Below are positions 40,133 through 55,330 of a stretch of 64,000 nucleotides of DNA, one piece after another. Positions within the stretch are counted from its first letter, which is position 1; every line of letters starts with the position of its first letter. The notes under the pieces are model-generated. The model did not search any database. It had not been told where the DNA came from and saw only the letters and a list, made by a program, of their open reading frames with translations. The DNA is from Bdellovibrionota bacterium (lineage in GTDB: Bacteria; Bdellovibrionota_C; UBA2361; CALJRW01), in assembly GCA_041740355.1 (NCBI GenBank), contig JBGSMD010000030.1, positions 1-64,000 of the forward strand, given 5' to 3'. The position numbers and the translations under genes are program-made.

Positions 40133-41131
40133 ATGAATATTAGTATGTTAGATAGCGAAAGTCTAAATAAATTTGAAAATAAGTTTGAGCAACCTCAAAT
40201 ACTTAGCGATGAATTCTTTCAGCCTGCGGCCATAACTGACCCAGGTTGCGAACGAGAACTCAATGAGGACCGTTATGCAGTGATTGAATCAGCTTCAGGC
40301 TTAGTTTGGGTAGTTTGTGATGGCATGGGTGGAGTTAAGGGTGGTGAGCTTGCCGCACAACTGGTAATCGATTCTGTTAAAAGAACATTAGATTCTGACG
40401 TACAGTTAAAACCGGAAGACGCTTTAAGGGAAGCATTTGCTGAAGCTAATCGTATTGTAGTGTTGCGCAGGCAAAACCAAGCCTTTTCACAAATGGGAAC
40501 TACCGCGGTAGGAGCAATTTTTCAAGATCGTCAAGTAACAATTGTTAACATTGGTGATTCACGAGCATATCTAATTAGCGATGGTCGAATTAAACAGCTT
40601 ACCGAAGATCATACTTATGTTCAGCAATTAGTTAAGTCTGGACAGTTGCGAGAAGAAGAAGCTTTGGAACATCCCCAAGCTCACGTCTTAACTAGAGCAG
40701 TAGGATCAGATCCAACTTTAAATGTTGAATTACATAATTACTGGATTTGGGATGTAGAATCACCGAGTGATCAAGATTACTTACTTTTTTGTACTGATGG
40801 TTTGTACAGTATGATTACAGATCAAGAGATTCTTGATCTAGCTTTAAAATTTCCTCCTCAAATTAGCTGTAGTCAAATGGTTGAATTAGCTAAAGAGCGC
40901 GGAGGATATGATAATATCACTGTAGCAGTAGTGCCACTCGTGGGTAAGCTAAGAAAAGCGCCACCTGCAGGATATGTCTTACCTCAGGTAAAGAAAGAAG
41001 TGGATAAGAAGAGTATGAGTATAGAAGCTTTGAAACCTTTTATTCTTAAGAATTTTTTAATGATAGTTGGACTAAGCTTAATCGCTTTGATTATCGCAGT
41101 AGTCTTGATTTTATTAGCATTAACTAGGTAA
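40133..41131 (+). CDS. PP2C Ser/Thr phosphatase with C-terminal TM anchor
   Basis: NED, CDGMGG, MGTT, GDSRAY, DHT, TDGL and GGYDNIT. Confidence 0.95.
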   Translation: MNISMLDSESLNKFENKFEQPQILSDEFFQPAAITDPGCERELNEDRYAVIESASGLVWVVCDGMGGVKGGELAAQLVIDSVKRTLDSDVQLKPEDALREAFAEANRIVVLRRQNQAFSQMGTTAVGAIFQDRQVTIVNIGDSRAYLISDGRIKQLTEDHTYVQQLVKSGQLREEEALEHPQAHVLTRAVGSDPTLNVELHNYWIWDVESPSDQDYLLFCTDGLYSMITDQEILDLALKFPPQISCSQMVELAKERGGYDNITVAVVPLVGKLRKAPPAGYVLPQVKKEVDKKSMSIEALKPFILKNFLMIVGLSLIALIIAVVLILLALTR

Positions 41132-41136
41132 AAATA

Positions 41137-42159
41137 ATGAGTAAAGAAAATAATGATAAAGCTGCTCGCGCACGAAATAAGACGGTAATGCTGACTCCAG
41201 ATATTGCCAATCAGATGCGTTCTAGGTTAATGACAGGAACTCATCGCTCTGGAAGTACAGAAAAATTAGACACTGGTTTAATTAACCAAGTTCGCGAAAA
41301 TTTTGGTGCTCCCCAAACTCGGGAAAGAGATACTGAAGATAAGCAAACACAAATTATCGATTCAAGTAGGTTTATGAATCAATTGCCAGCAATTGAGGAG
41401 GAAACAGAATTAGAGGTGAATTTTTTGGATGCATTAAAGTCACGTGAGACACCGCGTTCGCCCGAAACTAGAAATGCACCTGTGGTTCAGATCGATAAGT
41501 TAGATTTTGATGTTGATGAGCCAGAAGTAATCTTAGCACCAGTTGAACAGCGCTCCATAATTGAAGAAGATTTTGTGGCACTAGAAAATTTGGATGATGA
41601 TTTCACCGAAGATTTAATGTCAGTAAAACAAACAAGAATTAGCCCAGAGCCGGAGTCTTATAGAATTGAGATTCCAGAAAATAATTTTGAAGAGGAGATA
41701 AAAATGAATCAGACAGTTGGAAGTTTAAATACAGATTTAAAACGCGGAATTCCTAGTAGCCCAGTGAAGCAAGCGGGAGTATCAGAATCGCAGTGTCTTA
41801 ACGGCGATATTATTAAGTGGGAAAAAGAAACACCGCTAGTCGGATTCCTGGTCTCATTTGATGGAAATCCTAAAGGGGACTTTGTGATTTTGCGTAATGG
41901 ACGTCTGATCGTTTCCGCGGATCAGTCAGACAAGGGTAATTTACTGGTGATTAATGATGAGTCTGTCTCTCCGATGCATGCTATAATCAGAGTATCAGAA
42001 TCAAGCATCGTTGTTCTGGATCAATTATCAGAGAATGGGACAAAGATTCAAAAAGCAGATGGCGCGACAATCGAATTATCAGGTGATAAAGCTAATTTAG
42101 AACACGGGGATACACTTTCATTTGGGGATCGAAATTATAAGGTCTGTGTTCTATTCTAG
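41137..42159 (+). CDS. FHA-domain protein with long acidic disordered N-terminus
   Basis: VGFLV...G, D.SVS..HA, D..S.NGT and L..GD...FG. The canonical GR appears to be replaced. Confidence 0.8.
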   Translation: MSKENNDKAARARNKTVMLTPDIANQMRSRLMTGTHRSGSTEKLDTGLINQVRENFGAPQTRERDTEDKQTQIIDSSRFMNQLPAIEEETELEVNFLDALKSRETPRSPETRNAPVVQIDKLDFDVDEPEVILAPVEQRSIIEEDFVALENLDDDFTEDLMSVKQTRISPEPESYRIEIPENNFEEEIKMNQTVGSLNTDLKRGIPSSPVKQAGVSESQCLNGDIIKWEKETPLVGFLVSFDGNPKGDFVILRNGRLIVSADQSDKGNLLVINDESVSPMHAIIRVSESSIVVLDQLSENGTKIQKADGATIELSGDKANLEHGDTLSFGDRNYKVCVLF

Positions 42160-42378
42160 TCTGCAGAATTAGTTTGAGCTGTTTTTGGTAGAAGATGTCG
42201 ATCTGTAAACAGTCACATGATATTTAAAGGTTTCCTGAATGCAATTTGTTATTCACAAGTTATCGTCAAAAAACAGCGATATTGATCTTGGTGAAATTGC
42301 TAACTTCAAGTACTTTTAGATATCATGGCAACAAGTAAATTCTTTTTAGAGTGGTACTTGTTTTACCATCAGATTATA

Positions 42379-42618
42379 CTCACAGCTTTTCATTTTTTGA
42401 TAAAAAATGAAAAGAAAGGAGAGCGAGCAAAATCCTGTCGCCTTGTCCGCCATAGCTTAGCGGAGGAGGAAGCGAAAGTGGAAGACAGGTGTTGCCGTAG
42501 AAAAAGCACCAAACTCTACGCAAATCTGCGGGGAGTATTGGTTTTGTCTTTTACTGCGTAATCTTGGCTTATGCCAAGATTACGCTCGCCCTCCGCAAAT
42601 TTCATCTGCGGAGGGTTT
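42379..42618 (-). repeat. Structured dispersed element family C, copy 2 (with ~45-bp hairpin insert)
   Basis: Reverse complement aligns with 13409-13602. Ends 9 bp before the kinase ATG. Confidence 0.88.
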
Positions 42619-42627
42619 ATATAAGTA

Positions 42628-44121
42628 ATGAACTTGACAGGAGAGCATACATTTAATTTACAACCAGGAGCGGTAATTGCTGGTCGCTTTGAAATACTAA
42701 AGGCTTTAGGGTCAGGTAGTATGGGATTGGTTTATGCCTGTCGTGATCGAGAATTCTCAGGGAGAATTTTAGCGGTTAAAGTTCTGTTTCCTGAAGTAGC
42801 CAACGATCAAGTTTCCATGGCCCGTTTTCGCAATGAAATTGTTGCCTCTTATAAAGTTTCCCACCCCAATGTAATTCGTTCGTTTGAGTTAGTTCGCGAT
42901 GACGATTTGATCGCCTACACAATGGAACATATTGATGGTGGCACGCTGCTAGAATTCATTAGCGCAGATAAACTAATTGATCTTAATTTTGCTATTAAGC
43001 TGATGATTCAAATGTGTGCAGGGGTTCAAGCAATTCATGATGCGGGTATTGTGCACCGTGATTTAAAACCAGAAAATATTCTCTTGACCAATGAAAACTC
43101 CGTTAAAATTGCCGACTTTGGTATAGCTCGAACGGCTCATGGGCCAAAGCTTACGGAACATGGTGGTGTTGTTGGTACTATTGATTATGTTAGTCCCGAA
43201 TACATCTTAGAATCCAAAGTAGATTGGAGGTCAGATATTTATGCCCTTGGAGTTCTAAGTTATGAGTTAGTTACTGGGCATGCTCCGTTTCGTGGCGATA
43301 GTGTATACAGTACGATGACTAAACGCTTAAATGAAGATCCAGCGCCTCCAAGTTCGATCCGAGCGGAATGTTCCCCTGAATTAGATCATATTATCTTAAA
43401 GGCATTAGCTCGAAAAATTGATGATCGCTATCAATCGGCAGCGATCATGGCTAGCGATCTGGTTAAAATTTACCGCGAAGATCATAATAGTCCGCTATCA
43501 ATTAATAGTACTGCTTTGGTTAATGCCGATCCCACTAAGTTTAAGGGGCCCATTTTGGATCAAGAAGCAGTCGAGGCATTAGCTCCTCCGCTCCCGGAGT
43601 TAAGTAGCGTGCCAGGGGATTCTGCAACTACTCCGAAAAGAACGCGTTCCCGAACTGATTCACATGTAAAAATTAATTTCCAACCCGTTAATAGTACTAA
43701 TGACTCTGATCGTAATACGTTGAATCAGCTTAATTTGGCTAAGACCGCAACAATTGAACCAGGAGTTATTGATATTGCAGCTTATTATCATAATCGAGTT
43801 AATGATAATTCCAAGATGGAAAGTGTGATTGATCGCTCTATGAATCGTAGTATGACAAGTCCCAATAATCTTTCGGAGTCAATTCAGATTAATACTGGAA
43901 GTATCAGTCAAGAAAGGCTTAGACAACTGAATAGAACGTCGTTTTCATCAAAGGTTAAAAATCAATTCCAGAGACTTATATTATTGTTCATTGCTTCTTT
44001 AGCAATTGTCTTAGGACTAGCTAGTGGTTATTATTTAATTAATTTTTTGTTTGGACCTGAAGATATTTTTCAAGTTTTGGAATCTTTAATACTTAGAATT
44101 ACTAAAATAGTTGGATTATGA
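42628..44121 (+). CDS. Hanks-type Ser/Thr kinase with C-terminal TM segment
   Basis: GSGSMG.V, AVK, HRDLKPEN, DFG, GT..Y.SPE and D.Y..G are all intact. Confidence 0.96.
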   Translation: MNLTGEHTFNLQPGAVIAGRFEILKALGSGSMGLVYACRDREFSGRILAVKVLFPEVANDQVSMARFRNEIVASYKVSHPNVIRSFELVRDDDLIAYTMEHIDGGTLLEFISADKLIDLNFAIKLMIQMCAGVQAIHDAGIVHRDLKPENILLTNENSVKIADFGIARTAHGPKLTEHGGVVGTIDYVSPEYILESKVDWRSDIYALGVLSYELVTGHAPFRGDSVYSTMTKRLNEDPAPPSSIRAECSPELDHIILKALARKIDDRYQSAAIMASDLVKIYREDHNSPLSINSTALVNADPTKFKGPILDQEAVEALAPPLPELSSVPGDSATTPKRTRSRTDSHVKINFQPVNSTNDSDRNTLNQLNLAKTATIEPGVIDIAAYYHNRVNDNSKMESVIDRSMNRSMTSPNNLSESIQINTGSISQERLRQLNRTSFSSKVKNQFQRLILLFIASLAIVLGLASGYYLINFLFGPEDIFQVLESLILRITKIVGL

Positions 44122-45275
44122 AATTATTAATTATCGATATTTCTGCTGAAGCACAGGCTAAGTGTGCCAAAAGAATTGAGACCTTTCACCGCAGTGATAT
44201 GGAAAGCCTTGATTTGCAAGTTCAACTAGTTGGCCCTGCTGATTATATTTCTCGTGTAAATGAAGTAGATGTTTTAGTTTTAGGCGCAGGGCTTGGAGAA
44301 AAAGCAATTAATATTGCCCGTCAAGCTACTTCGATGGTGCCATGGCTGCATGTAATCATGTTCGTCAATGAAACAGCGTATGGGGGAGGAGCTTTTCGGG
44401 CAGCCCATTCTGCTGGAGTTCGAAAAGTGTTTCCAGATAATGCTACCCCCCTAGATTTCTTGCAAGAACTGGTGGCAATACATGCCGAATTTAGACGTTC
44501 AGGTAGAACTCGAGATGGAATCGTTATTGCGGTAACGCATGCCAAGGGTGGCGTGGGAGCGACTACTATGGCAGCAGGTTTAGCCGAAGTTTGTTCTGCC
44601 TTTCGTCGTCGAACAATGATCTGGGATTTAGATGTTGAAACTAGAGATTTAAGTCGGGGCTTAACTGTGAATGGAGCAGAAGCAAAAGTGGTTAGTGCTT
44701 GGGTTAATGGTAGTCGTGAGGTTACTAGAGAATCATTAAATGATGCCTTAATTCCAATAAGCAGTGACGTTTCAGTTTTGATGCCACCGGATCGCATGGC
44801 GGAATCAATGGATTTAGTATGCCATACAGATAGTATTAACTTAGTACAGCGAGTCATGGAATTAGCTCGAGTATTATTTGAAGTTGTGATTGTAGATACT
44901 GCCGGTCGAATGGGTCCGGCAACTGGAGCTGTCCTTAGAAATGCAGATATAGTTTTAACAGTAATTGATGACACAGTGTTAGGTTTAACAGCAGTAGATT
45001 TGTATCTGAGCTATATTAAAACCTTGGTTGCAGATATCAATCGAGTGAGATTTTTACTTAATCCATATTCCGGTGCCTTGTTGGATATGAATCAAATAGT
45101 TTTAGCTTTGAATGAGCACAACTTACCAGATAAAGCCTGGAGCTTGCCGCCAGTTCCGAATGATCCGAAAGGCTCAGTGTGGCCAGGAACAGGTCGGACA
45201 ATTTATAGTATGGGACAAAAAGATACTCGCAACACTTTAGAGGCTATCGCCACTGAGTTAGGGTTGATTAATTAA
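44118..45275 (+). CDS. cpaE: CpaE/TadZ-like pseudo-receiver plus MinD-type ATPase
   Basis: N-terminal receiver-like fold lacking the phosphoacceptor Asp; KGGVGATT, DLD and IVDT. ATGA overlap with the kinase. Confidence 0.8.
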   Translation: MKLLIIDISAEAQAKCAKRIETFHRSDMESLDLQVQLVGPADYISRVNEVDVLVLGAGLGEKAINIARQATSMVPWLHVIMFVNETAYGGGAFRAAHSAGVRKVFPDNATPLDFLQELVAIHAEFRRSGRTRDGIVIAVTHAKGGVGATTMAAGLAEVCSAFRRRTMIWDLDVETRDLSRGLTVNGAEAKVVSAWVNGSREVTRESLNDALIPISSDVSVLMPPDRMAESMDLVCHTDSINLVQRVMELARVLFEVVIVDTAGRMGPATGAVLRNADIVLTVIDDTVLGLTAVDLYLSYIKTLVADINRVRFLLNPYSGALLDMNQIVLALNEHNLPDKAWSLPPVPNDPKGSVWPGTGRTIYSMGQKDTRNTLEAIATELGLIN

Positions 45276-45295
45276 CAGTATTTAAGGAATGATTT

Positions 45296-46183
45296 ATGTC
45301 TAGACATTTTGGTGGAGTTCCAAGTAAACGTGGACCTGATCAGCGAACATTAATAATTGTTGTAGCTAGTTTCTTTATGATCATTCTGATGGTTTTAGCT
45401 GTAATGCTAATAAAGAAAGGTGGAAATGATAATTCGGTTCAAGTTACAACAGATAATACTGATATTAACTTAGCAAATGTTTTGGTACCAATTCGACGAA
45501 TTGAAGTAGGTGAAAAACTATCGCCAGATATGTTTAGAATTGAGCTACGATCACGTTTCGGGTTATCGGAGGGAGTTATCGGTGATATGGCCTCAATTGA
45601 AGGATTCTATTCACGATCACTAATCTTACCTGAACAGCCATTGTATCGAGATTACTTAACTCAATATGGAAGTAATAATCCAATCGTTCAAGAAATTCCT
45701 GCAGGTTTCCGAGCTGTTTCTATCCGTGTGGATGATACTTCCAGCGTTGAGGGTTGGATTAGAAAAGGTTCGATTGTTGATGTGCAATTAGTTACTAAAG
45801 TTAATGCCCAAGATATCTTAAAAGTAATCGTGGAAAAAGCAAAAGTACTATCTGCTGAAAGAACGGTAGTAGCTAATACTCAACAAACTGTGGATAAGGT
45901 TCCAACCACAGTAACTTTATTAGTTAATTCAGATGACGCCAATAAAATAACTTTGGCCTCAATGAATGGACGCTTAAACTTAGTTTTGCGTAATCCTGAT
46001 GATGATATTCAAAACCCTGCATCTTCAATCGACATGCCAAATGTTATGAATTTGCAACGTAATCTTCCACAAATTGAAGCTAAGCGAAGTTGCCCGGGTC
46101 GTTTAGTTGTTGGTGGAGAAACTAGATGCATCTGTGCTAACGGCGACATGATTGAAGCAGATGAAAATGGCAAGTGTAGCTAG
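45296..46183 (+). CDS. cpaB: Flp pilus assembly protein CpaB/RcpC
   Basis: TM anchor and SAF domain; IPAGFRAVSIRVD..SSV.G.I..G..VDV, TVTLLV and L.LVLR. Confidence 0.92.
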   Translation: MSRHFGGVPSKRGPDQRTLIIVVASFFMIILMVLAVMLIKKGGNDNSVQVTTDNTDINLANVLVPIRRIEVGEKLSPDMFRIELRSRFGLSEGVIGDMASIEGFYSRSLILPEQPLYRDYLTQYGSNNPIVQEIPAGFRAVSIRVDDTSSVEGWIRKGSIVDVQLVTKVNAQDILKVIVEKAKVLSAERTVVANTQQTVDKVPTTVTLLVNSDDANKITLASMNGRLNLVLRNPDDDIQNPASSIDMPNVMNLQRNLPQIEAKRSCPGRLVVGGETRCICANGDMIEADENGKCS

Positions 46184-46194
46184 AGTTTCAAGTA

Positions 46195-46228
46195 TCTTGG
46201 AGACTTTAATTAATTAAAGTCTCCAAGA
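46195..46228. repeat. Perfect 34-bp palindrome between cpaB and cpaF
   Basis: TCTTGGAGACTTTAATT|AATTAAAGTCTCCAAGA. Confidence 0.9.
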
Positions 46229-46252
46229 ATAATTTTATGAGTTAATTATAAG

Positions 46253-47770
46253 ATGTCAGATAAAGACAACGACTTAAGCGGATTATTCTCAACTAGAAGT
46301 AGCCGTGCTAGGTTAACAACTGATGGAAAAGGAGCTGAGCATACTAGTGGAGGTTCCTCTTCTTCGTCGGAAGTGGCAACACCTTCTACTAATCCAACTG
46401 GCAACAATAACAATCGCCGTGATACACAAAAACTGAGTGGTCAACTTGGTGCCCGAGTGGGTTCAAGTGGAGCGATGAGATCGTCTAGCTTATCTACGCT
46501 AGGAAATACAATCCTGAAGGAAGTCCGTCGAGAATTAGGAAATGAATTCAACATTTCCGATGAGCAAGGTTCTGATGTTAGTGAAGCTAATATCACTCGA
46601 GCTGTTGATCGTGTTTTGAAAAAACGTTCTGAGTCATTAGATGATTTAGAAAAAGCAAATATTATTATCCATCTTCAAAAAGATTTATTAGGATGGGGGG
46701 TTTTACAACCATTAATTGATAATGTGGAAGTTACAGATATTCACGTCTATGATTATCGTACAGTAGTTTTACAAAGAGGTAAAAACAGTGAAATTACCGG
46801 AATTAACTGGCCAAATCATCAGGCTTATGTTTCTTTTATTGATCGAGTTTTATTAAGACTTGGTAAGTCCTTATCTACTGCGCAACATACTATTGATGCC
46901 TCATTTGTAAATGGAATACGTATTTGTGCAGTTCATGAAAGTGTTTGTGGTGCAAAAGGACCTTACCTGTGTATTCGTGTTCCAAGGATTGTCGATGCTA
47001 CTCTTGATAGTATTGTTACTTATCAAGTTGCCCCTCCAATAATCGTGGATTATTTAGCTTCCTTAACTCGTTCGGGACTTTGCACGATCATGCTAGCAGG
47101 TGAGACTGGTACTGGTAAGACAACACTAATGCGTTGCTTGGCATCTCAGTTTGGACCAGATGAAGCAATTGTCAGTGTAGAAGATACTCCGGAATTAAAC
47201 TTAGTTCACCCATTTTATCGTTGTTTAGTTTCTCGTGCTCCAAACTCGGAAGGTATTGGGGAGGTTACTTTGCAAGAACACATTAAAACAACTCTAAGGA
47301 TGACACCGACTAGAGTTCTCTTAGGGGAGATGCGTACTCCCTTAGCCGCCGAAGCCTTCTTAGAATCTGCTCAGACTGGTCACGTAGGAATGTCCACAAT
47401 CCACGCACGTAATGCCAAGGAAACATTAGTTCGATTAGAAAGCTTATTGGGACGGGCCCAGAAATCAGTTTCTGTAGATATTATTAGGCAGCAAATTGCC
47501 TTAGCTGTAGATTTAGTTATTTGGTTAGTTCGCGAAAAAGGTAGTGGTAAACCTAGGATCGCCGAAGTTGTTGAAATCGGTCATTATGTGGAAGGACAGA
47601 TTCAAGTTAGGCCAATGTTTACTTTAATCAAACCTGGTCAACAGCCTGTTTGGAGAGTTGAATCTTGGGCCAGTAACTTTGAGGAAGTATTAGCGGATGA
47701 TAATATTTTCTTAGGTAATTTACCAACTGAAGTTACTCTAAATACCGCCGGCTCTGGTGGACTTCGTTAG
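46253..47770 (+). CDS. cpaF: Tad secretion ATPase CpaF/TadA with Ser/Thr-rich N-terminal extension
   Basis: G.G.LQPL..N..VTDI, GETGTGKTT, EDTPEL, LRM.P.R...GE.R and TGH..MSTIHA. Confidence 0.95.
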   Translation: MSDKDNDLSGLFSTRSSRARLTTDGKGAEHTSGGSSSSSEVATPSTNPTGNNNNRRDTQKLSGQLGARVGSSGAMRSSSLSTLGNTILKEVRRELGNEFNISDEQGSDVSEANITRAVDRVLKKRSESLDDLEKANIIIHLQKDLLGWGVLQPLIDNVEVTDIHVYDYRTVVLQRGKNSEITGINWPNHQAYVSFIDRVLLRLGKSLSTAQHTIDASFVNGIRICAVHESVCGAKGPYLCIRVPRIVDATLDSIVTYQVAPPIIVDYLASLTRSGLCTIMLAGETGTGKTTLMRCLASQFGPDEAIVSVEDTPELNLVHPFYRCLVSRAPNSEGIGEVTLQEHIKTTLRMTPTRVLLGEMRTPLAAEAFLESAQTGHVGMSTIHARNAKETLVRLESLLGRAQKSVSVDIIRQQIALAVDLVIWLVREKGSGKPRIAEVVEIGHYVEGQIQVRPMFTLIKPGQQPVWRVESWASNFEEVLADDNIFLGNLPTEVTLNTAGSGGLR

Positions 47771-48235
47771 CTATAACTTTAAATTTCAGTTCATTTGGTG
47801 ACTAACTTTACAAGCTAAGTTTCCTTGGGAGATCAATTTTTCTATAAAGAAAAATTCTTCTATTCGATTGTAGCTCCTAAAGAATTGAAACTAAAGGTTA
47901 TTCCCATTCATCTTATTTAATTTTATACTGTATAAATAGTAATTGCCTGAAGTCTTTTTCAAAAAAGTTTTTTGAGAATCTTTGTGGAGTTACTATTTTA
48001 GATTGTATTTAAAATCATTGACTTGATTCTCAAGCGCGAATTGCTTGAGGGTGAGCAAAGGGTCTTTCAAACTTGGATTTTTCTCTTTTGTAGTAAAGCT
48101 AAGGTAGAAATAAAGATTGATCAGCCCAAGTCCTAAAAGGTAATTTTAAAAACTTAGCATCTTATTGCTAGGTGTAATGATTAGCTTTATCAAAGCTCAA
48201 ATTAAAGTTTTGTGTCTTAATTAATATTTTCCGAA

Positions 48236-49207
48236 ATGAATATCCTGATCCTTGGAATAATGTTTTTAGTTTGTTTGATTGCGGGGGTAATTGTCTACCT
48301 TTTATTTGGCATGACCAAGTCTAAAAAGACATCTAGCAAAAGCCAAATCCAAAATATTATGCAGGCTCAACGTAGTAATGGTAATTTGAGTCGGGCAGAA
48401 CAAAGAAATAATAAACTTGATAAGGTTTTATTATCAACAGAAAAAAAAGTTACAACTTCCGGTGATATGACTTTGCCGAAGAAGCTGCGTTATGCCAGAT
48501 GGAAGATGCCTCCGATTGTGTTTATTGTTTTACAAGTAGTTATAAGTCTAGTTGCAGTTTTTATGGCTAATATTTTTTTTGATTGGCCAATTATCTGCGT
48601 TTCTATTTTCTTAGGTCCGATTATCATGAATTCGCTAGTCGGTATGGCGATGAACCGAAGATTTAAATCCTTTGACAAAGATTATCCTTCCTTTCTACTT
48701 AACGTTGTAAGTATGTTACGAATAGGGATGAACGTAGTAACCGCAATCCAATCTGCTGCCGAAGGATTAAATCCCGAGTCCTTAGTCCGAGAAGAAGTTA
48801 CTTTGATGCTTGATCGTTTAAAACTTGGGGTGTCGGAAGATAAGTCAATTGGTGCCTTTGGTGAGGATATCAATCATCCGGAAATTGAGCTTTTTGTTCA
48901 GGCTGTAATTTTAAGTCGCCGCTTAGGGGGTAACTTATCAGATACGCTGGATCGCTTGTCTCAACAAGTACGTAAACGTCAATTTTTCCGTTCTTCCGCG
49001 GAGGCTGCAGTATCCTTACAGAGAGGTTCGATTTGGGTAATCCTAGGGATCATGGTTTCTTTAGAAGGGTATATTTTAGTAACCAGTCCGGATTTAATTA
49101 TGACCGCGATCAATGATGATTTTGGTTGGCTAGTTTGGCAAGGGGCTGTTGTGACAATCTTTATTGGAATTTTATGGGTGAGACAAGTTACAAAAATTAA
49201 AGTTTAA
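48236..49207 (+). CDS. tadB: TadB inner-membrane platform protein
   Basis: RR...F...P..L......LR.G and GGNL...L..L...VR.R motifs. Confidence 0.9.
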   Translation: MNILILGIMFLVCLIAGVIVYLLFGMTKSKKTSSKSQIQNIMQAQRSNGNLSRAEQRNNKLDKVLLSTEKKVTTSGDMTLPKKLRYARWKMPPIVFIVLQVVISLVAVFMANIFFDWPIICVSIFLGPIIMNSLVGMAMNRRFKSFDKDYPSFLLNVVSMLRIGMNVVTAIQSAAEGLNPESLVREEVTLMLDRLKLGVSEDKSIGAFGEDINHPEIELFVQAVILSRRLGGNLSDTLDRLSQQVRKRQFFRSSAEAAVSLQRGSIWVILGIMVSLEGYILVTSPDLIMTAINDDFGWLVWQGAVVTIFIGILWVRQVTKIKV

Positions 49208-49210
49208 TCA

Positions 49211-50140
49211 ATGGATGTTAATACACTACTAATAATCTTAATTGCTTTTTTTATCCTGATATTCTTTGGAGTATTTGCTTATTTATTTTTAGGTCGGAAG
49301 AAAGAAAGTAATTTAGCGAACTTGATTAAAGTTACTAGGCCTAATGCTGGCAAGATTAATCGAAATTCAGTTAAAGAGAAAATGGCTTCGGCAAATGAGG
49401 ACATTCGTGAGATCACTGAAACTCAGCGCAGAAATTATTCGAAGAAAAAAGTTAAAGTTACGGAAGAGGAGCGTTATTATCATGCCGGCCTGTTAAGTAA
49501 TAAGCAACGTGATAATTTCAAAAAATTCCGATTTTATGCACCTATTGTTGCGGCTGTTATTTTGACGATCTTCACTTATTTTGTGTTAGGGAAAAATCTA
49601 GCCTTATTTGGCTTAGCGATTGGAGCTTTAGCCGGAGTAGCGCTTCCAGGTTTTTATTTAGATCGCTTGATCAGTAAGCGTTACGAAGAGATAATGTATT
49701 ATTTGCCACTTGTAATTGAGCAAATTGCCATTGGTGTAAGCAGCTCGCTAGATATTGGCCCCTGTCTTCAACGCGTAATCCAAATGGCAGATGAACGAGA
49801 TTCCCATAATGTGGTGACAGAATTAATTTTTCATGCCGAGCGCTATATCCGAACAGGGGTAAGTTTAGAAGAAGCAATGAATGAGATTGGTACTAAGTCA
49901 GGTCACCCAGAATTAAAACATGCGTTTATGGCTCTTGCTCAAGTTTCTAAGCATGGGGGAGAGATCTCTCACCAATTACAAGAATTAGCAAGTGCGGTTT
50001 CAAGTCAACGAGAGACTCAGATTGATTCCAAGATTAAGCGCTTGGAGTTAAAAGCAACTGGGCCAGTTGCATTGGTTTTTGTAGCTTTTATGGGAACTTT
50101 AATGATCGGTATTATGATCAAAATTAAAAAGAATTTATAA
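49211..50140 (+). CDS. tadC: TadC inner-membrane platform protein
   Basis: AGL, P..YL...R...I...LP, L.Q..KHG..I...L and K..P motifs. Confidence 0.88.
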   Translation: MDVNTLLIILIAFFILIFFGVFAYLFLGRKKESNLANLIKVTRPNAGKINRNSVKEKMASANEDIREITETQRRNYSKKKVKVTEEERYYHAGLLSNKQRDNFKKFRFYAPIVAAVILTIFTYFVLGKNLALFGLAIGALAGVALPGFYLDRLISKRYEEIMYYLPLVIEQIAIGVSSSLDIGPCLQRVIQMADERDSHNVVTELIFHAERYIRTGVSLEEAMNEIGTKSGHPELKHAFMALAQVSKHGGEISHQLQELASAVSSQRETQIDSKIKRLELKATGPVALVFVAFMGTLMIGIMIKIKKNL

Positions 50141-50298
50141 ATGTTTAGCCTTGGTAGTCAACGAATGAAAAAACTTGAAGTGTCTTTGCTGTAGTAAAAG
50201 TACAGTTGTGACTTGAGCATTTTTTTTGAATTCGACCTACACTCTAACTTAAAAATTAACATAAAGGCATAACCTTAGTGTTACTATGATGAATTTGA

Positions 50299-52380
50299 AT
50301 GCTTAAATTTTTAAGAAACATTAATAGCGATTTTTTCGTAGCTCTATTCGTATTGTGCGTCGCTGCGCTGCTATTTGTTCCCCTTCCTACAGCACTATTA
50401 GATGTTTTAATTGCTGGGAATATCGCCTTTTCTTTACTTCTTTTATTGATTGGTCTTTCTCTTAACAATGTACTCTCCCTCCTTACATTTCCCACCTTAT
50501 TACTGCTATCAACATTATTTCGACTGAGCTTAAATGTCGCATCTTCCCGTCTAATTCTTAGTCAAGGAGATGCTGGTCAAGTTATCCATTCATTTGGTAC
50601 ATTTTTAATTCAGGGTGAATTAGTAGTTGGGATAATTATTTTCTTAATGTTAACCGTAATTAATTTGATAGTCATTACTCGTGGAGCGTCACGAGTATCG
50701 GAAGTAGCTGCCCGCTTCACCTTGGATGCTTTGCCAGGAAAGCAATTAACGATCGATTCCGATTTACGGACAGGTTTAATCTCCGCGGAGGATGCTAAAA
50801 AAAGACGTGAGGATTTGCGTAAAGAGAGCCAAGTATACGGTTCCATGGACGGAGCGATGAAATTTGTTCAAGGTGATGCCATTGCTGGAATCTTTATAAT
50901 TTGCGCTAATATGTTTGGGGGGATGTATCTTGGACTACGATCGGGCTTAAGTTTCTCTGAGGCACTTGAAACCTACACTGTCTTAACAATTGGAGATGGA
51001 TTAGTTACGCAAATTCCGGCATTGTTAGTTTCTAGTTGTGCGGGATTTGTGGTTACACGAGTCTCTACGGAAAATACTTCAACGCTAAGTTCAGATTTAG
51101 TAAGTCAGTTGCTTCGCAATCGTAAAATCCTTTTCACTGCTGCTATTGTAACCGCTTTTATTGCCTTCTTGCCAGGATTGCCAGCATGGCCGTTCTTATT
51201 TGCAGCATTGGTATTTGTATTCTTAGGGTTTATTATTCGATTTGACTCTCAGGGTAAACAGATTCTTTTTTCCAATAGTCCCCAGCTTAGACAAATAAGT
51301 GGCGGCAGTTCAAATTCTAAGATGTTGACGAATTCTACAACTGGCGCCTCAAATTTAAAAATTTATTTATCTGCCGATTTAATTAAAATCTTTGGAAATA
51401 ATCAGACTTATTATTTTGATTGGTGGAAACAAGAACAGCAGCAGTTTCATGAAAACTATGGAGTTGATTTACCAGATTTTCAGTTAATCCTTCGTCCCGA
51501 ATACTCGGGCGGAGAATTTAATTTAATTAATAAAGATTATTCCTTTTATCATGGAAACATCTCCGCGCAAACTTGCTACATAGAAATTGCCAGTGAGCAA
51601 TTAGCTTGTTATGGAATTAAAGTAATTAAGTCTGTCAGGGCACCAATTTCCCAACGGCGAGTATCTTTGGTCTTGGATTCTAATTTAATTCGTAGTTTGA
51701 AAGCTAATTCTCAATTAGTAGTTTTTGATGCATTGCAGTTTATCGCGCTACAAGCAAAAGATTTCTATTTTAGAAATCCCGAGCAACTTTTTACTTTAAC
51801 TAATATTCATTTATCAATCAAAGAGATCGAAAATCATTTTCCAGGATTATTTACGGAATTATTTGCTAATAATTTCTTTAATTCAGCCAGATTGTTGGAG
51901 CTTTCCAATGCCTTATTTCGATCCGGTCTTTACTACAAAAATGTTCGGACTCTTTTAGAGGATCTTGCGATTTATAGTTCCTCTTATGGTAAAGATCTAA
52001 TTCAAGCTAATGAATTTAATATTTCGGACATTGTCGACTTCTTACGAATGCAAAATAAGCGCCAGATTGTCGCTAGTCACTTAACACATAAAAAAAGTTT
52101 AAAAGTCATTTATGCCGGAGCAGAACTAAAACATTCTTTACTGCAAGCATCCAAACAAGATCGAAGTGTAAAAAAACAACTACTGAAATCTTTAGAAACC
52201 GTATATGATAGTTTAGCTGCTAAATCGAATTACACGGTTATGTTACTTGTGCCGAACGAATTGCGTCTAAAGTTAAACTCATTATTAATTGAGAATGGCT
52301 TAACCTATTCAGTGATTAGTTACAATGAAATTGACCCGGCTGTTAGTATTGAACCATTAGGAACTTGGAATTATAGTTAG
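50299..52380 (+). CDS. sctV: Type III export gate protein, FHIPEP family, SctV-like
   Basis: FPTLLL..TLFRL.LNVASSRLIL, RVSEVAARFTLDA.PGKQ, ESQVYGSMDGAMKFVQGDAIAG, LTIGDGLV.QIP and a C-terminal S.NEI. Confidence 0.9.
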   Translation: MLKFLRNINSDFFVALFVLCVAALLFVPLPTALLDVLIAGNIAFSLLLLLIGLSLNNVLSLLTFPTLLLLSTLFRLSLNVASSRLILSQGDAGQVIHSFGTFLIQGELVVGIIIFLMLTVINLIVITRGASRVSEVAARFTLDALPGKQLTIDSDLRTGLISAEDAKKRREDLRKESQVYGSMDGAMKFVQGDAIAGIFIICANMFGGMYLGLRSGLSFSEALETYTVLTIGDGLVTQIPALLVSSCAGFVVTRVSTENTSTLSSDLVSQLLRNRKILFTAAIVTAFIAFLPGLPAWPFLFAALVFVFLGFIIRFDSQGKQILFSNSPQLRQISGGSSNSKMLTNSTTGASNLKIYLSADLIKIFGNNQTYYFDWWKQEQQQFHENYGVDLPDFQLILRPEYSGGEFNLINKDYSFYHGNISAQTCYIEIASEQLACYGIKVIKSVRAPISQRRVSLVLDSNLIRSLKANSQLVVFDALQFIALQAKDFYFRNPEQLFTLTNIHLSIKEIENHFPGLFTELFANNFFNSARLLELSNALFRSGLYYKNVRTLLEDLAIYSSSYGKDLIQANEFNISDIVDFLRMQNKRQIVASHLTHKKSLKVIYAGAELKHSLLQASKQDRSVKKQLLKSLETVYDSLAAKSNYTVMLLVPNELRLKLNSLLIENGLTYSVISYNEIDPAVSIEPLGTWNYS

Positions 52381-54777
52381 ATGAGTGATAATTTAATCCC
52401 CCATACCCCCGGACCATATACGGATTATTTTCAGATCTCTTATAAAATTGCGGAGACTTTTGGTGCAAATTTATATAGTGGCATAAATGTTGATAGTTCC
52501 AAGCCCACTGTACTCTGGGTTTCCAAATTTCCTGTTAATTTAACTTCTGCGGAAGCTCAAAATCTATTGTTGCAAATGCACAGTATCGATGTAATTGATC
52601 CTCCAGTTGGACCATTTGATACCTATGGAATTGATTTTCATGGTTTAGCATTTCTAAGTTTTACTGAAAAAATATCAAATAATTTAAATCAATCACGCGC
52701 TAATACAGAAGAGATGGAGCGAAGGCTGTTTAAGGCCATTCGATTGGTTCATAAAGCGCATCAAGCAAATTGTTGCTTTGGAGATCTTAACCCCAACTCT
52801 TTTTGGTTAAATAATTCTGGAGGTGTTGAATTAACCTCTGTCCTAAAATTACCGATGACATTTCAAAAAAGTGATCTGGCGAGCTTTGATTCACAGTTGA
52901 TTGCTTATCTGGCACCGGAGGTTTTTGAAAAGGTAGTTAGCACCCAAAGTGATGTCTACTCCTTGGGGATGATTGCTTTCTATCTAATCCTCAATCGTCT
53001 TCCCGTGGAAGTTGAATTAACGCCAGAAGGATTACCAAAAATTGATTATACTTTAGAAAATACTTTCAAAAAACAATTGCCTCCCTACTTATTGGAAGTA
53101 TTAGAGAAAGCAATTTCCTTGGACCCGGCGTTGCGATATCAGACAGCCGGCGAGCTAATTGAGGCTTTGGTTGCTATTAATGAACGGATTAAAGTGGGAG
53201 ATAAACGGGAGACTCCCGCAACTGAGCCAATAGTAAATATTCTTCCAGCGATTCGTTCAAAAGATCAAATGCAGATTGAAAAATTTCAAGAATCTTTAGC
53301 TAAACGTTTAGCTAATAATGCTTATAAAATTATCTTTTCTGTCATTGCATTTGTAATTTTAGCATCCTTAGTAACTGGGTTAATGTTTTATCGCCATTAT
53401 CGCCAAACGTTAGCTCGTGAGATTAATGAAGCAACAGCGCCATTTTCAGGAGGTAATCCTGAACTGACTAAGTCCATTGCGCAAATTTCCAATATTAGTG
53501 CTGAACTCAAAGATAAGATTGCCGAGATTCAGTCTTTGGCAGAATCTCCCGATCCCTTAAGTTATGGTTTATTAGTTGCCAGTGCGGACAATAGCAAAGA
53601 TGATTTGCTAGTTAAAAACTCTCAGTCAGCCATTATCCAAAAATTGCAAAGTTCTGGGCAAGTACTGACAGCGATTCAACTTGAACAATGGTTTCGCTAT
53701 GGAAATAAGGATATTAAAAGTCCAGTCTTCGGGAAGGTCTTAAAACTTCTTGACCCAGCAATGCCTTTAAAAAATAAACTTTCAGCAATTAATAAATTAA
53801 ACAGTCAAGATTTAAATATTTCTACTCGTCTTGCTGCGGCACTATATTTTGATTTAAAACAACCGGATAGTTTTAAAGAATTATTAGTTCAGCAAATTGG
53901 GAAAGGTTTAGGTATTCCCGCAGCTGAAAAACTTTCTGCTTTGGCTTTAATCATGCAACATGAAGCTTTACATCAGATTTTTTCAGAACAAATTAAATCT
54001 AATTATTCAAAACTTTCGGAATATGATTTAAAGGTTTTGTTAGAATATTTTGCTAAACGTGATCAGCAAGTATTTAAAGATTTAGTTAAGATAATAATTG
54101 AACAAAATATATATCCTAAACTTAAAGCCCGTTTTTTAGTGGCAATTATTAGTAATAAAGATCTTAGTATCGATCTAACAGAAGCTCTGACTATGGTGGC
54201 AGTTGATAAAGTTGATGCATCTTATCTAAATCGAATTGTTACATGGCAGTCACCACAGGCAGAAGAATTACTATTTTCTTTAATTTCAATCTTAGAAGAT
54301 AACGAAGGTAAAGTAATGGTTCTTGACAGTCTAGCTATCCGAAACTTGCAATCAAATCCAGGGCAAGGGTTTGTTAAATGGTTAAAGGAAAATAAGTGGG
54401 AGCAAAGGCAAAAATACCTAGATTCCTTAGCTACTTTAGCTACTTCAGTAAACTTTACTGAACAAGAGATTTTATCAGCATTAAAAATATTTCAAAAAGA
54501 CTTACAAGATACTGGGTTGCAAAATGCATTATTAGCTAGTGCCGATGATCGCTTACCATTATTATTTATTGAAAACTTCTCGGAGAGTATTGGCTTAGCA
54601 CAAAAACTGAATTTACTTAAACATCCAAATACTGAAATTCGCAAAGCAATTATTAAACGACTGGAAACAAATGACGTTGGTGCAATGAAGTTGATCGTTG
54701 ATGCCTATTCTCTGGAGCAAAATGAAGAGTTAAAGAATATCTATAAAGAGAAGTATTGGTTTGTGAAGAACCGTTAA
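52381..54777 (+). CDS. Membrane-spanning pseudokinase with large helical C-terminal domain
   Basis: FGDLNPNS replaces HRDLKPEN; no DFG or Gly loop. YLAPE, SDVYSLG and RYQTA.E are retained. TM helix at about aa 315-337. ATG directly follows the sctV stop. Confidence 0.75.
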   Translation: MSDNLIPHTPGPYTDYFQISYKIAETFGANLYSGINVDSSKPTVLWVSKFPVNLTSAEAQNLLLQMHSIDVIDPPVGPFDTYGIDFHGLAFLSFTEKISNNLNQSRANTEEMERRLFKAIRLVHKAHQANCCFGDLNPNSFWLNNSGGVELTSVLKLPMTFQKSDLASFDSQLIAYLAPEVFEKVVSTQSDVYSLGMIAFYLILNRLPVEVELTPEGLPKIDYTLENTFKKQLPPYLLEVLEKAISLDPALRYQTAGELIEALVAINERIKVGDKRETPATEPIVNILPAIRSKDQMQIEKFQESLAKRLANNAYKIIFSVIAFVILASLVTGLMFYRHYRQTLAREINEATAPFSGGNPELTKSIAQISNISAELKDKIAEIQSLAESPDPLSYGLLVASADNSKDDLLVKNSQSAIIQKLQSSGQVLTAIQLEQWFRYGNKDIKSPVFGKVLKLLDPAMPLKNKLSAINKLNSQDLNISTRLAAALYFDLKQPDSFKELLVQQIGKGLGIPAAEKLSALALIMQHEALHQIFSEQIKSNYSKLSEYDLKVLLEYFAKRDQQVFKDLVKIIIEQNIYPKLKARFLVAIISNKDLSIDLTEALTMVAVDKVDASYLNRIVTWQSPQAEELLFSLISILEDNEGKVMVLDSLAIRNLQSNPGQGFVKWLKENKWEQRQKYLDSLATLATSVNFTEQEILSALKIFQKDLQDTGLQNALLASADDRLPLLFIENFSESIGLAQKLNLLKHPNTEIRKAIIKRLETNDVGAMKLIVDAYSLEQNEELKNIYKEKYWFVKNR

Positions 54778-54940: not shown

Positions 54941-54975
54941 TTTCTTAATAATTTTTCAAATTATTAAGAAAGTAA

Positions 54976-55055
54976 TGCGGAAGGAGGGACTTGAACCCTC
55001 ACGCCGAAGCACTAGATCCTAAGTCTAGCGTGTCTGCCAATTCCACCACCCCCGC
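54976..55055 (-). tRNA. tRNA-Leu(TAG)
   Basis: Reverse complement reads GCGGGGGTGGTGGAATTGGCAGACACG-CTAGA-CT-TAG-GA-TCTAG-...GGTTCAAGTCC...CCGCA. Variable arm present; CCA not encoded. Confidence 0.95.
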
Positions 55056-55330
55056 AAAGAAATGATTAGGAACCACATAATAATCAATTTTTAATTTTTT
55101 ACAAGTGTTGTGTATGGCCAGTGTGCATTGCGCACTGGCCTTACACAAAATCACGCCGAAGCATGCTAAGCATAATTGTTCTAATCTTCAGACAATGCGT
55201 AGGCGGATTACTGGGATAAATATCAAGCTAAATGTCCAAATCCTATTTTTTGTTGATTTCTGTAACTGTTTACTATGCCAATAACTATTGGTATACCAGT
55301 AAGGAAATTTACAAAAATTAAACTAAAAAT

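Follow-up and report, generated by a model that had tools for sequence, protein, structure and literature searches.

A conserved Bdellovibrionota locus combining Ser/Thr phospho-signalling genes, a Tad pilus module and a SctV-family type III export gate

Why should the gene for a full-length type III export gate be kept inside a Tad pilus locus, and with which partners might its product work? The question is raised by the 64,000-nucleotide stretch of DNA analysed here, hereafter the window (contig JBGSMD010000030.1, positions 1 to 64,000 of the forward strand, from the Bdellovibrionota bacterium assembly GCA_041740355.1). This assembly, genome G000 of our set, amounts to 3.27 Mb and is 97% complete. 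Among sequencing records, four DNA entries of one study, labelled hot-spring or biofilm metagenome, were listed, one of which may be its source, and no RNA entry was. In the window, ten co-directional open reading frames (ORFs) on the + strand occupy positions 40133-54777 in the order PP2C phosphatase, FHA-domain protein, Ser/Thr kinase, cpaE, cpaB, cpaF, tadB, tadC, sctV (of the FHIPEP or SctV/FlhA family) and pseudokinase. A first-pass annotation had proposed this gene set, its order and its coordinates, and all of them were confirmed by the ORFs together with Pfam and NCBIfam profile searches, which also provide the family assignments given below. Here we show the gene content of the locus and of its partner cluster, the conserved order and contiguity of the genes, the distinct and conserved character of this SctV and the absence of a flagellum. 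From gene content and order, we consider it moderately probable that the window holds the first half of a lineage-wide super-locus encoding one composite, phospho-regulated envelope apparatus, in which a Tad module and a T3SS (type III secretion system) module lacking a needle would cooperate by the mechanism outlined further on.

As judged from the genomes compared, sharing of the same gene arrangement is far beyond chance, since the order recurs in dozens of genomes with orthologues that are only 20-75% identical. A FHIPEP match was found in all 40 same-order relatives searched; in 37 of them the best match, 36-46% identical (92% in the congener), spanned the query wholly or for the greater part, while G033, G035 and G036 contained only FHIPEP fragments or another paralogue class. 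Flanks were examined in 34 same-order relatives from 21 families and in 20 more genomes belonging to other orders of the same class, with genes called by tblastn. The tadC gene lay directly upstream of sctV in 34 out of 34 same-order relatives, and a FHIPEP match came right after tadC in 16 of the 20 other-order genomes. Three of these 16 were partial matches, yet the 673-721-aa ORF found there matches Pfam FHIPEP at 55.3-266.9 bits; in one other-order genome the sctV position is occupied by a 596-aa ORF, with 28.5 bits. The tadC-sctV adjacency, on whose survival in related genomes the first-pass annotation had made its proposal depend, was therefore widely retained. Four loci from other orders (L192, L193 and L206 of family f28, and L201 of f34) hold at the sctV position a full-sized ORF of 596-721 aa that is strongly diverged. 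The pseudokinase gene appeared 3' of sctV in 32 of the 34 same-order loci according to tblastn, its position being taken by an 802-aa ORF in L134 and by a gene on the other strand in L135. Nineteen of the 34 relatives preserve the strict ten-gene order, and the remaining 15 are either cut by contig ends or show no tblastn hit for one to three genes (cpaB in four cases, the PP2C-FHA-kinase trio in two). Spacers, whose values are approximate because the first start codon in frame was taken, had a median of 54 nt between tadC and sctV (n=47, with overlap in 4 loci) and of 41 nt between sctV and the pseudokinase gene (n=41, with overlap in 7 loci); the tadC-sctV spacer of the window itself measures 158 nt.

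The first-pass annotation had described this SctV as an orphan, a description that has to be abandoned, as a matching T3SS core is encoded on contig C6 of the same genome and lies contiguous with the locus in relatives. Positions 79482-87439 of C6 encode the partner genes of SctV, namely FHA1, FHA2, SctJ, a FliM-like protein, SctR, SctS, a membrane protein, a SctU-like protein, an ORF of about 80 aa and a TPR protein, in an order kept across the order to which the window belongs. In G064, a genome from outside that order, tadB, tadC, sctV, the pseudokinase gene, FHA1, FHA2, sctJ, the FliM-like gene and sctR follow each other on one contig and one strand. Likewise, FHA1 and FHA2 come co-directionally after the pseudokinase position in all 12 of the 20 other-order loci that reach that far. 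Contiguous halves were hence observed in 13 genomes outside the order (these 12 and G064), with SctJ also reached in four (three of them and G064), and inside the order in G003 and G023, which belong to one family. Since the Tad half and the T3SS half are contiguous both outside the order and in these two genomes, the ancestral state would most simply have been one super-locus; most simply too, the second half would have moved in most of the window's order whilst sctV stayed with tadC.

The export-gate gene itself (50299..52380, + strand) encodes a full-length FHIPEP protein (Pfam FHIPEP 527.7 bits, profile positions 3-656 of 657) with seven or eight hydrophobic segments within residues 7-318, as detected, like all hydrophobic segments reported here, by a Kyte-Doolittle scan. 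A profile of its clade aligns end to end with the solved structures of YscV (641.6 bits), FlhA (543.1) and SsaV (505.7), as well as with isolated C-domains. Nonetheless, the protein scores below both NCBIfam equivalog cut-offs, with 524.7 vs 692.25 bits for SctV (TIGR01399) and 464.2 vs 772.1 bits for FlhA (TIGR01398). When canonical columns were defined as those at least 95% identical in 85 proteins (74 named SctVs and 11 flagellar FlhAs), the window SctV kept 71 of the resulting 79, comprising 65/68 in the N-terminal, membrane part and 6/11 in the C-terminal part. Its closest named records are metagenome-assembled genomes (MAGs) labelled Bdellovibrionota or Bdellovibrionales. Two phylogenies were built, one with FastTree from 134 rows and the other with IQ-TREE (quick search with the posterior mean site frequency, PMSF, mixture model) from 58 rows that include nine other-order orthologues; both are unrooted, with an unresolved backbone, and contain no flagellar FlhA from other phyla. 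The Tad-linked FHIPEPs formed one clade in each of them, with 38 rows at 99* in the FastTree phylogeny and 21 rows at 99* in that of IQ-TREE. In both trees this clade stood apart from the flagellar FlhA of the order and from a further class, termed (c) below, and it was also separate from the clade of named injectisome-type SctVs, which has 73 (or 24) members and includes Myxococcota and Chlamydiales. These columns and trees show a Tad-linked SctV that is distinct but well conserved. An affinity with the orphan flagellar FlhA known from Chlamydia was contemplated and dropped, the nearest named records being Bdellovibrionota MAGs and the Chlamydiales SctVs falling in the injectisome clade.

Most genomes of the order harbour three FHIPEP classes: (a) the Tad-linked form, with 515-594 Pfam bits; (b) canonical FlhA, with 845-865 bits, fliP upstream and a sigma factor gene downstream; and (c) a form of about 620 aa encoded in a conserved cluster, between sigma factor, SctJ and small protein genes on one side and a TPR gene on the other, corresponding to contig C20 in the genome of the window. 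FliP matches, likewise of three classes, follow the same pattern among the 31 genomes searched, 26 of them having three, G000, G001 and G021 two, and G009 and G033 four, although the extra match of G009 is one frame split in two. FHIPEP paralogue counts agree with these figures (three classes in most genomes, two in G000, G001 and G021). Hence, most relatives carry the Tad-linked set in addition to flagellar FlhA and FliP. The genome of the window, at its 97% completeness, yielded neither a flagellin nor a FliN/SctQ-type SpoA match, and no FliI/SctN above cut-off, the best TIGR01026 match reaching 244.6 bits vs 379.5. Five sub-threshold TIGR01026 matches on contigs C64, C26 and C36 are presumably F/V-ATPase subunits and the like. 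In agreement with the expectation of the first-pass annotation, the gate did not group in either tree with the flagellar FlhA of its own order. The flagellar FlhA class is missing in the family of the window and in one other family (G000, G001, G002 and G021), and the flagellar FliP class in G000, G001 and G021 as well, which looks like a lineage-specific loss of the flagellum with retention of both non-flagellar gates. In G020 (C5) and G011 (C2), that is, loci L125 and L139, flagellar fliP immediately precedes the PP2C gene, at some 10 kb upstream of the Tad-linked sctV, and flagellar flhA is on another contig.

A second non-flagellar type III-like set, divided between two clusters that are both conserved across the order, was observed in the genome of the window. 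In the first cluster (C20:70441-75774, L008), genes for a sigma factor, SctJ and a 96-aa protein are accompanied by one for a 613-aa FHIPEP whose C-domain is divergent and one for a TPR protein. The other (C64:21434-24475, L006) encodes a 257-aa protein, SctR, SctS, SctT and a 245-aa SctU that lacks NPTH. Pairing of the window SctV with this C64 SctRSTU set was considered and rejected, because SctV is contiguous with the C6-type set in relatives. In G040 (C31:9211-15953, L185), C6-type sctR-TPR-sigma genes stand back to back with a C20-type FHIPEP cluster, and the FHA1, FHA2, sctJ and FliM-like genes are not upstream of sctR; this arrangement may be a link between the two non-flagellar sets, or it may be due to chance. 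The Tad-linked FHIPEPs would represent a deep-branching third class beside the flagellar and injectisome ones, and the C20-type paralogue, if counted, a fourth.

The products of the C6 cluster point to a reduced export apparatus. FHA1 displays two canonical FHA domains, with their GR, SxxH and NG motifs kept, and a C-terminal membrane anchor. FHA2 starts with a zinc ribbon, continues with an acidic linker and ends in an FHA domain, two of whose three motifs deviate. The SctJ lipoprotein and SctR were recognized by Pfam; the TPR protein has 139 aa. Upstream of sctR is encoded a 331-aa protein for which the homologue search returned three near-identical proteins only. Its structural model, based on a 20-row alignment built from the loci of relatives (pLDDT 76.4, pTM 0.67), matched full-length FliM in the Salmonella C-ring (Foldseek E 3.2e-8 to 1e-6, probability 1.00), and also FliM middle domains and a FliM(SpoA)::FliN fusion; the protein therefore appears FliM-like by fold, with a CheC-like middle domain and a SpoA-like C-terminus. 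A previously unannotated ORF of about 82 aa is FliQ/SctS-like according to hhalign (97.2%). The 224-aa SctU-like protein, identified by Pfam and hhalign, comprises the membrane domain only: its alignment with FlhB, a protein of 365 residues, covers positions 8-235 of the latter, and its end comes just past the last membrane helix, in a comparison that relies on two good rows of the FlhB reference, the other two of its four rows being short wrong ORFs. The protein contains no NP[TE]H motif and the C-terminal switch domain is missing. Between SctS and SctU-like lies a 191-aa polytopic membrane protein that is probably SctT, by position and topology only. The ORF of about 80 aa after the SctU-like gene (C6, ~86772-87020) has counterparts of ~80-95 aa in most C6-type clusters; they lack NPTH, look helical by eye and are candidates for a chaperone or stalk protein. 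Overall, the T3SS core set is composed of SctV in the window and of SctJ, SctR, SctS and the SctU membrane domain on C6, plus the protein at the SctT position, which has no detectable similarity; no secretin was found in the window locus or in the C6 cluster.

Regarding the Tad half, a whole Tad core is present: TadA/CpaF, TadB, TadC, TadZ/CpaE and RcpC/CpaB, of which CpaB passes its equivalog cut-off and the others are assigned at the level of Pfam domains. The CpaE/TadZ-like ATPase of the ParA/MinD family (44118..45275, +; AAA_31 45.1 bits) is the most conserved protein of the locus; among the 124 genomes searched from the phylum, 117 have an orthologue that is 49-74% identical, and outside the order of the window 32 out of 32 do. 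The periplasmic pilus-assembly protein CpaB/RcpC (45296..46183, +; RcpC 71.4 bits; TIGR03177 126.3 bits vs a cut-off of 71) is anchored in the membrane by an N-terminal hydrophobic segment (14-44). The 505-aa CpaF/TadA-type secretion ATPase (46253..47770, +; T2SSE 105.1 bits; TadA-family TIGR03819 195.2 bits, below cut-off) exhibits the Walker A sequence GETGTGKTT and about 100 low-complexity residues at its N-terminus, contains no FHA domain detectable by Pfam, and has orthologues in relatives at 57-78% identity. The platform proteins TadB-like (48236..49207, +; T2SSF 49.9 bits) and TadC-like (49211..50140, +; T2SSF 44.5 bits) are encoded by genes that adjoin each other in every one of the 49 loci compared, with a median spacing of 4 nt.

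Pilin genes deserve separate mention, as the first-pass annotation had stated that the locus has none. This holds for the window, where the gap of 20 nt between cpaE and cpaB (45275-45296) contains no Flp gene, for its congener and for seven others among the 48 loci examined, and it fails for the other 39, in which one to four Flp-type pilin genes (...KGASLVEYALLVALIAVV...) are located between cpaE and cpaF. The window's genome has its four Flp genes, nearly identical to each other, dispersed over contigs C2, C64, C63 and C10, and also encodes one A24 peptidase and two secretins, all outside both the locus and the C6 cluster. The same genome contains a second, more canonical Tad core, with the order cpaE-cpaB-cpaF-tadB-tadC (C46:92311-97737) and products 24-36% identical to those of the window, and a third CpaE-like gene (C64:4427-5731). 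The stretch 40133-54777 is free of genes for a pilin, a secretin or a prepilin peptidase and of any further T3SS gene, as the first-pass annotation had also noted. Its interpretation as a whole stands in that the locus is real and its linkage conserved, and has to be revised regarding the orphan gate and the general lack of pilins.

The signalling genes flank the machinery on both sides. At the head of the locus, the Stp1-like PP2C Ser/Thr phosphatase (40133..41131, +; Pfam PP2C 66.3 bits; NCBIfam Stp1 equivalog 232.3 bits vs a cut-off of 230) bears a C-terminal hydrophobic anchor (residues 299-332), and its orthologue takes the same position in relatives. The FHA-domain protein that follows (41137..42159, +; Pfam FHA 34.7 bits, residues 266-330) combines a disordered N-terminal part with a C-terminal FHA domain whose GR, SxxH and NG motifs are intact, and shares 30% identity with FHA2 of contig C6. 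The Hanks-type Ser/Thr kinase of 497 aa (42628..44121, +; Pkinase 181.5 bits) presents the G-loop and the VAIK-like, HRDLKPEN, DFG and SPE motifs, all read in the sequence, and a hydrophobic segment at residues 446-476 that provides a C-terminal membrane anchor; by its motifs, it qualifies as an active kinase. At the opposite end, the bitopic protein of 798 aa (52381..54777, +) matches Pkinase at a sub-threshold 27.3 bits (cut-off 31.7). In an alignment of 42 rows it lacks the G-loop, the His and Arg of HRD, the Lys and Asn of DLKPxN and the DFG motif, and is therefore read as a pseudokinase, although Gly-Asp and the Pro of APE are retained across the 42 rows. Its degenerate kinase-like domain is followed by one transmembrane helix (~310-328) and a 455-residue ARM/HEAT-like alpha-solenoid with 30 helices (model pLDDT 91.2), for which Foldseek returned generic ARM/HEAT matches only (best E 4.1e-3) and no specific structural relative. 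A complex prediction of the SctV C-domain (330-693, 42-row alignment) with the N-domain of the pseudokinase (1-305) scored 0.01 against a mark of 0.32, which is evidence neither way.

At the junctions, the kinase stop and the cpaE start overlap as ATGA, and sctV and the pseudokinase gene abut as TAG/ATG; both had been pointed out by the first-pass annotation and are readily seen in the sequence. A hairpin with a perfect 15-bp stem, succeeded by an A/T-rich tract, lies between cpaB and cpaF (46195..46228, +; terminator-like site scan) and could act as an attenuator, mark a processing site or stabilise the mRNA. The promoter and terminator scan was uninformative on operon structure, site counts in the region being within shuffled expectation. 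Two stretches of about 470 nt inside the cluster (42160-42627 and 47771-48235) contain no convincing ORF or Rfam match; the second of them, the cpaF-tadB gap, extends over ~550 nt in the congener and over ~70-120 nt in two other relatives compared by coordinates. The cluster is flanked by housekeeping genes, with genes for a cobalamin adenosyltransferase-like protein and a DUF2231 protein on the 5' side, and on the 3' side a tRNA-Leu gene on the - strand (54975..55056; ARAGORN and Rfam), which marks the boundary, and then tig, clpP, clpX and lon. The Rfam scan of the window gave two tRNAs only.

How could these parts work together? In the composite apparatus that we favour, the first module would be a Flp/Tad-type pilus machine, with CpaE/TadZ as positioning ATPase, CpaB, CpaF as motor and TadB/TadC as platform, and the second a reduced type III export apparatus devoid of needle, secretin and ATPase, with SctV encoded in the window and the rest on C6. 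The membrane kinase, the PP2C and the FHA protein head the locus and the pseudokinase sits between the two modules. Phosphothreonine marks made by the kinase would recruit the four FHA-bearing proteins, leading both modules to assemble at one site. The gate, driven by the proton-motive force, would then export a substrate, possibly bound by the TPR protein as its chaperone, acting with or through the Tad pilus, which could replace the missing needle. Loss of the switch domain in SctU would fit a single substrate class. By analogy, such cooperation would resemble that of Kil and T3SS* of Myxococcus in contact-dependent killing, with prey, a host or a surface as conceivable targets. A more specific version is possible, and we put it forward tentatively: one integrated nanomachine, of a kind that would not yet have been described, in which an SctRSTUV gate without an ATPase, encircled by SctJ and FHA proteins and docked next to or inside the TadB/TadC-CpaF platform, would be switched on by Ser/Thr phosphorylation and load cytoplasmic cargo onto or through the Flp pilus, with CpaF or the proton-motive force replacing SctN and the pilus replacing the needle. 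In any event, the analysis yields a minimal set of parts, which lacks SctN and the SctU switch domain and includes a FliM-like platform protein, FHA proteins and an ARM/HEAT-solenoid pseudokinase, and which provides concrete candidates for coupling and regulatory contacts.

Several observations weigh against this composite apparatus. Across most of the order to which the window belongs, Tad half and T3SS core occupy separate loci, so that the two need not be tightly linked. The PP2C-FHA-kinase-CpaE genes alone were found in 3 of the 20 other-order genomes, and the diverged ORFs at the sctV position score 28.5, 55.3 and 57.7 bits for Pfam FHIPEP in three cases and 266.9 in the fourth, which may reflect a relaxed or altered function in those families. 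The protein at the SctT position showed no detectable similarity to FliR/SctT, with PF01311 matching none of 16 orthologues, hhalign giving 0.1% against a 4-row FliR reference and the PDB profile giving nothing. Neither a secretin in the locus nor rod or needle genes nor a substrate were identified, with the needle and translocon families not profile-searched, and since no SctN was detected, export would have to proceed on proton-motive force alone. For flagella, protein export is known to persist when the ATPase is lost. Finally, the window CpaF shares 27-29% identity with its best matches in four of five Myxococcota genomes, a set that included no M. xanthus reference sequence, and 36% with the canonical CpaF of its own genome. 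Because it is no closer to the Myxococcota Kil-like ATPases than to the latter, the parallel with Kil is one of analogy and not of orthology.

The same facts may be read as two independent machines, co-inherited and perhaps co-regulated, in which an ordinary Flp/Tad adhesion pilus and a separate minimal T3SS-like exporter would neither touch nor depend on each other. The Tad part has indeed a full Tad core with Flp pilins available, each half possesses its own FHA proteins, and the C6-type cluster remains at another locus in most of the order without signs of decay. Such independence is rather unlikely in our opinion, as on the split of the super-locus sctV remained with tadC, and not with sctRSTU, in 34 out of 34 cases in the order. 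A gate subunit would be useless without SctRST and is yet kept in the Tad operon, which neighbourhood alone hardly explains, the more so as spacers are short and sometimes overlapping and as, in many families outside the order, the complete set forms one contiguous, co-directional run.

Less probable still is the recruitment of the FHIPEP protein as a non-secretory Tad part, either as a proton-conducting energiser or as a ring-shaped scaffold for TadB/TadC, with the C6 products as accessory membrane scaffolds. Residues of the N-terminal ion path are the best kept (65/68) and the substrate-handling C-terminal domain is the more altered one (6/11), and ATPase, SctU switch domain, recognisable SctT, needle and substrate are all unseen, the needle families not having been profile-searched. 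On the other hand, SctR, SctS and the SctU membrane domain, which constitute the actual export channel in known systems, are retained and conserved alongside SctV; SctV still has its complete C-terminal ring domain, for which solved SctV C-domains provide matches, and next to the gate there is a TPR protein whose size would suit a chaperone. As for a decaying remnant of flagellar export left beside the Tad operon by chance, the flagellum-like layout of C6 (FliM-like, FliP, FliQ, membrane protein, FlhB-like) and the loss of the flagellum in the window's genome might have suggested it, but it is effectively refuted, given that most relatives possess this set plus complete flagellar FlhA and FliP, that all frames are open with 71/79 canonical columns kept, and that the clade is old, separate from the FlhA of the order and conserved in more than 50 genomes.

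Compared with the canonical Tad/Flp systems, whose gene order and components are familiar from Caulobacter cpa and Aggregatibacter tad, the locus has in common CpaE/TadZ, CpaB/RcpC, CpaF/TadA, TadB and TadC, as well as Flp pilins with a G/xxxxEY-type motif. It differs in the order cpaE-(flp)-cpaB-cpaF-tadB-tadC, with the FHIPEP gene after tadC, and in that secretin, prepilin peptidase and TadD/E/F/G are not in the locus. No description of a FHIPEP gene inside a Tad locus was found in the literature, in a coverage without most subscription journals or supplements. With the flagellar export apparatus the system shares the flagellum-like order of the C6 cluster, the FliM-like fold and homologous FHIPEP, FliP, FliQ and FlhB membrane domains, whereas its FHIPEP clade and FliP class are separate from the flagellar genes of the order, with which they coexist in most relatives, the C-terminal domain of FlhB is missing, and flagellin, FliN and an above-cut-off FliI were not found in the window's genome. 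A threonine-phosphorylation switch read by an FHA protein is known for the type VI secretion system (T6SS) of Pseudomonas. As with its PpkA/PppA/Fha set, a membrane Hanks kinase, a PP2C and FHA proteins are encoded here with what, from the genes alone, would be a contact-dependent envelope machine; unlike it, the locus contains no T6SS genes and the system comprises four FHA-bearing proteins and an extra pseudokinase.

The closest parallel is with the Kil and T3SS* systems of Myxococcus, an analogy drawn by the first-pass annotation that proved apt. According to the accessible part of the original report, Kil recruits T3SS* at prey contacts, where the two co-localise, and they are encoded separately, in mxan_2434-2464 and in the kil clusters; Herrou et al. 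suggested there that the pilus could stand in for the missing needle (PMC12075869). In its available sections, a review considers the co-occurrence of Kil and T3SS* apparently restricted to one myxobacterial suborder (PMC12428579), and both have been inferred in Bradymonadales (PMC11509652). The portion at hand of the paper describing Kil draws, in its discussion, a parallel with the threonine-phosphorylation switch of the Pseudomonas T6SS (PMC8460266). Common to both cases, as far as the accessible text of these sources goes, is an FHA-rich Tad-type machine paired with a type III apparatus, which in Myxococcus is without secretin, needle and translocon (PMC12075869, PMC8460266, PMC12428579) and which here has no secretin in its two clusters and would lack the other two as well, the needle and translocon not having been profile-searched here. 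They differ in several respects. The genes are in separate clusters in Myxococcus and in one co-directional super-locus here, with kinase, PP2C and pseudokinase built in. The class of T3SS* is marked by a sorting platform with its ATPase, whereas here a FliM-like platform protein is accompanied by no SctN match above cut-off and by a SctU without switch domain. Moreover, the window CpaF lacks the N-terminal FHA domain that the KilF-type ATPase has, and the window SctV falls outside the Myxococcota SctV clade. Judging from the SctV tree and the CpaF identities, the window system is an orthologue of neither Kil nor T3SS*. An unrelated lineage has written Tad and T3SS into a single conserved super-locus, and kept SctV in the Tad operon even when the T3SS core moved, which would speak independently, on evolutionary grounds, for a partnership of Tad and T3SS in function. 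Should the integrated nanomachine prove true, this lineage would become a genetic 'Rosetta stone' for the partnership of Kil and T3SS* that has been proposed in Myxococcus.

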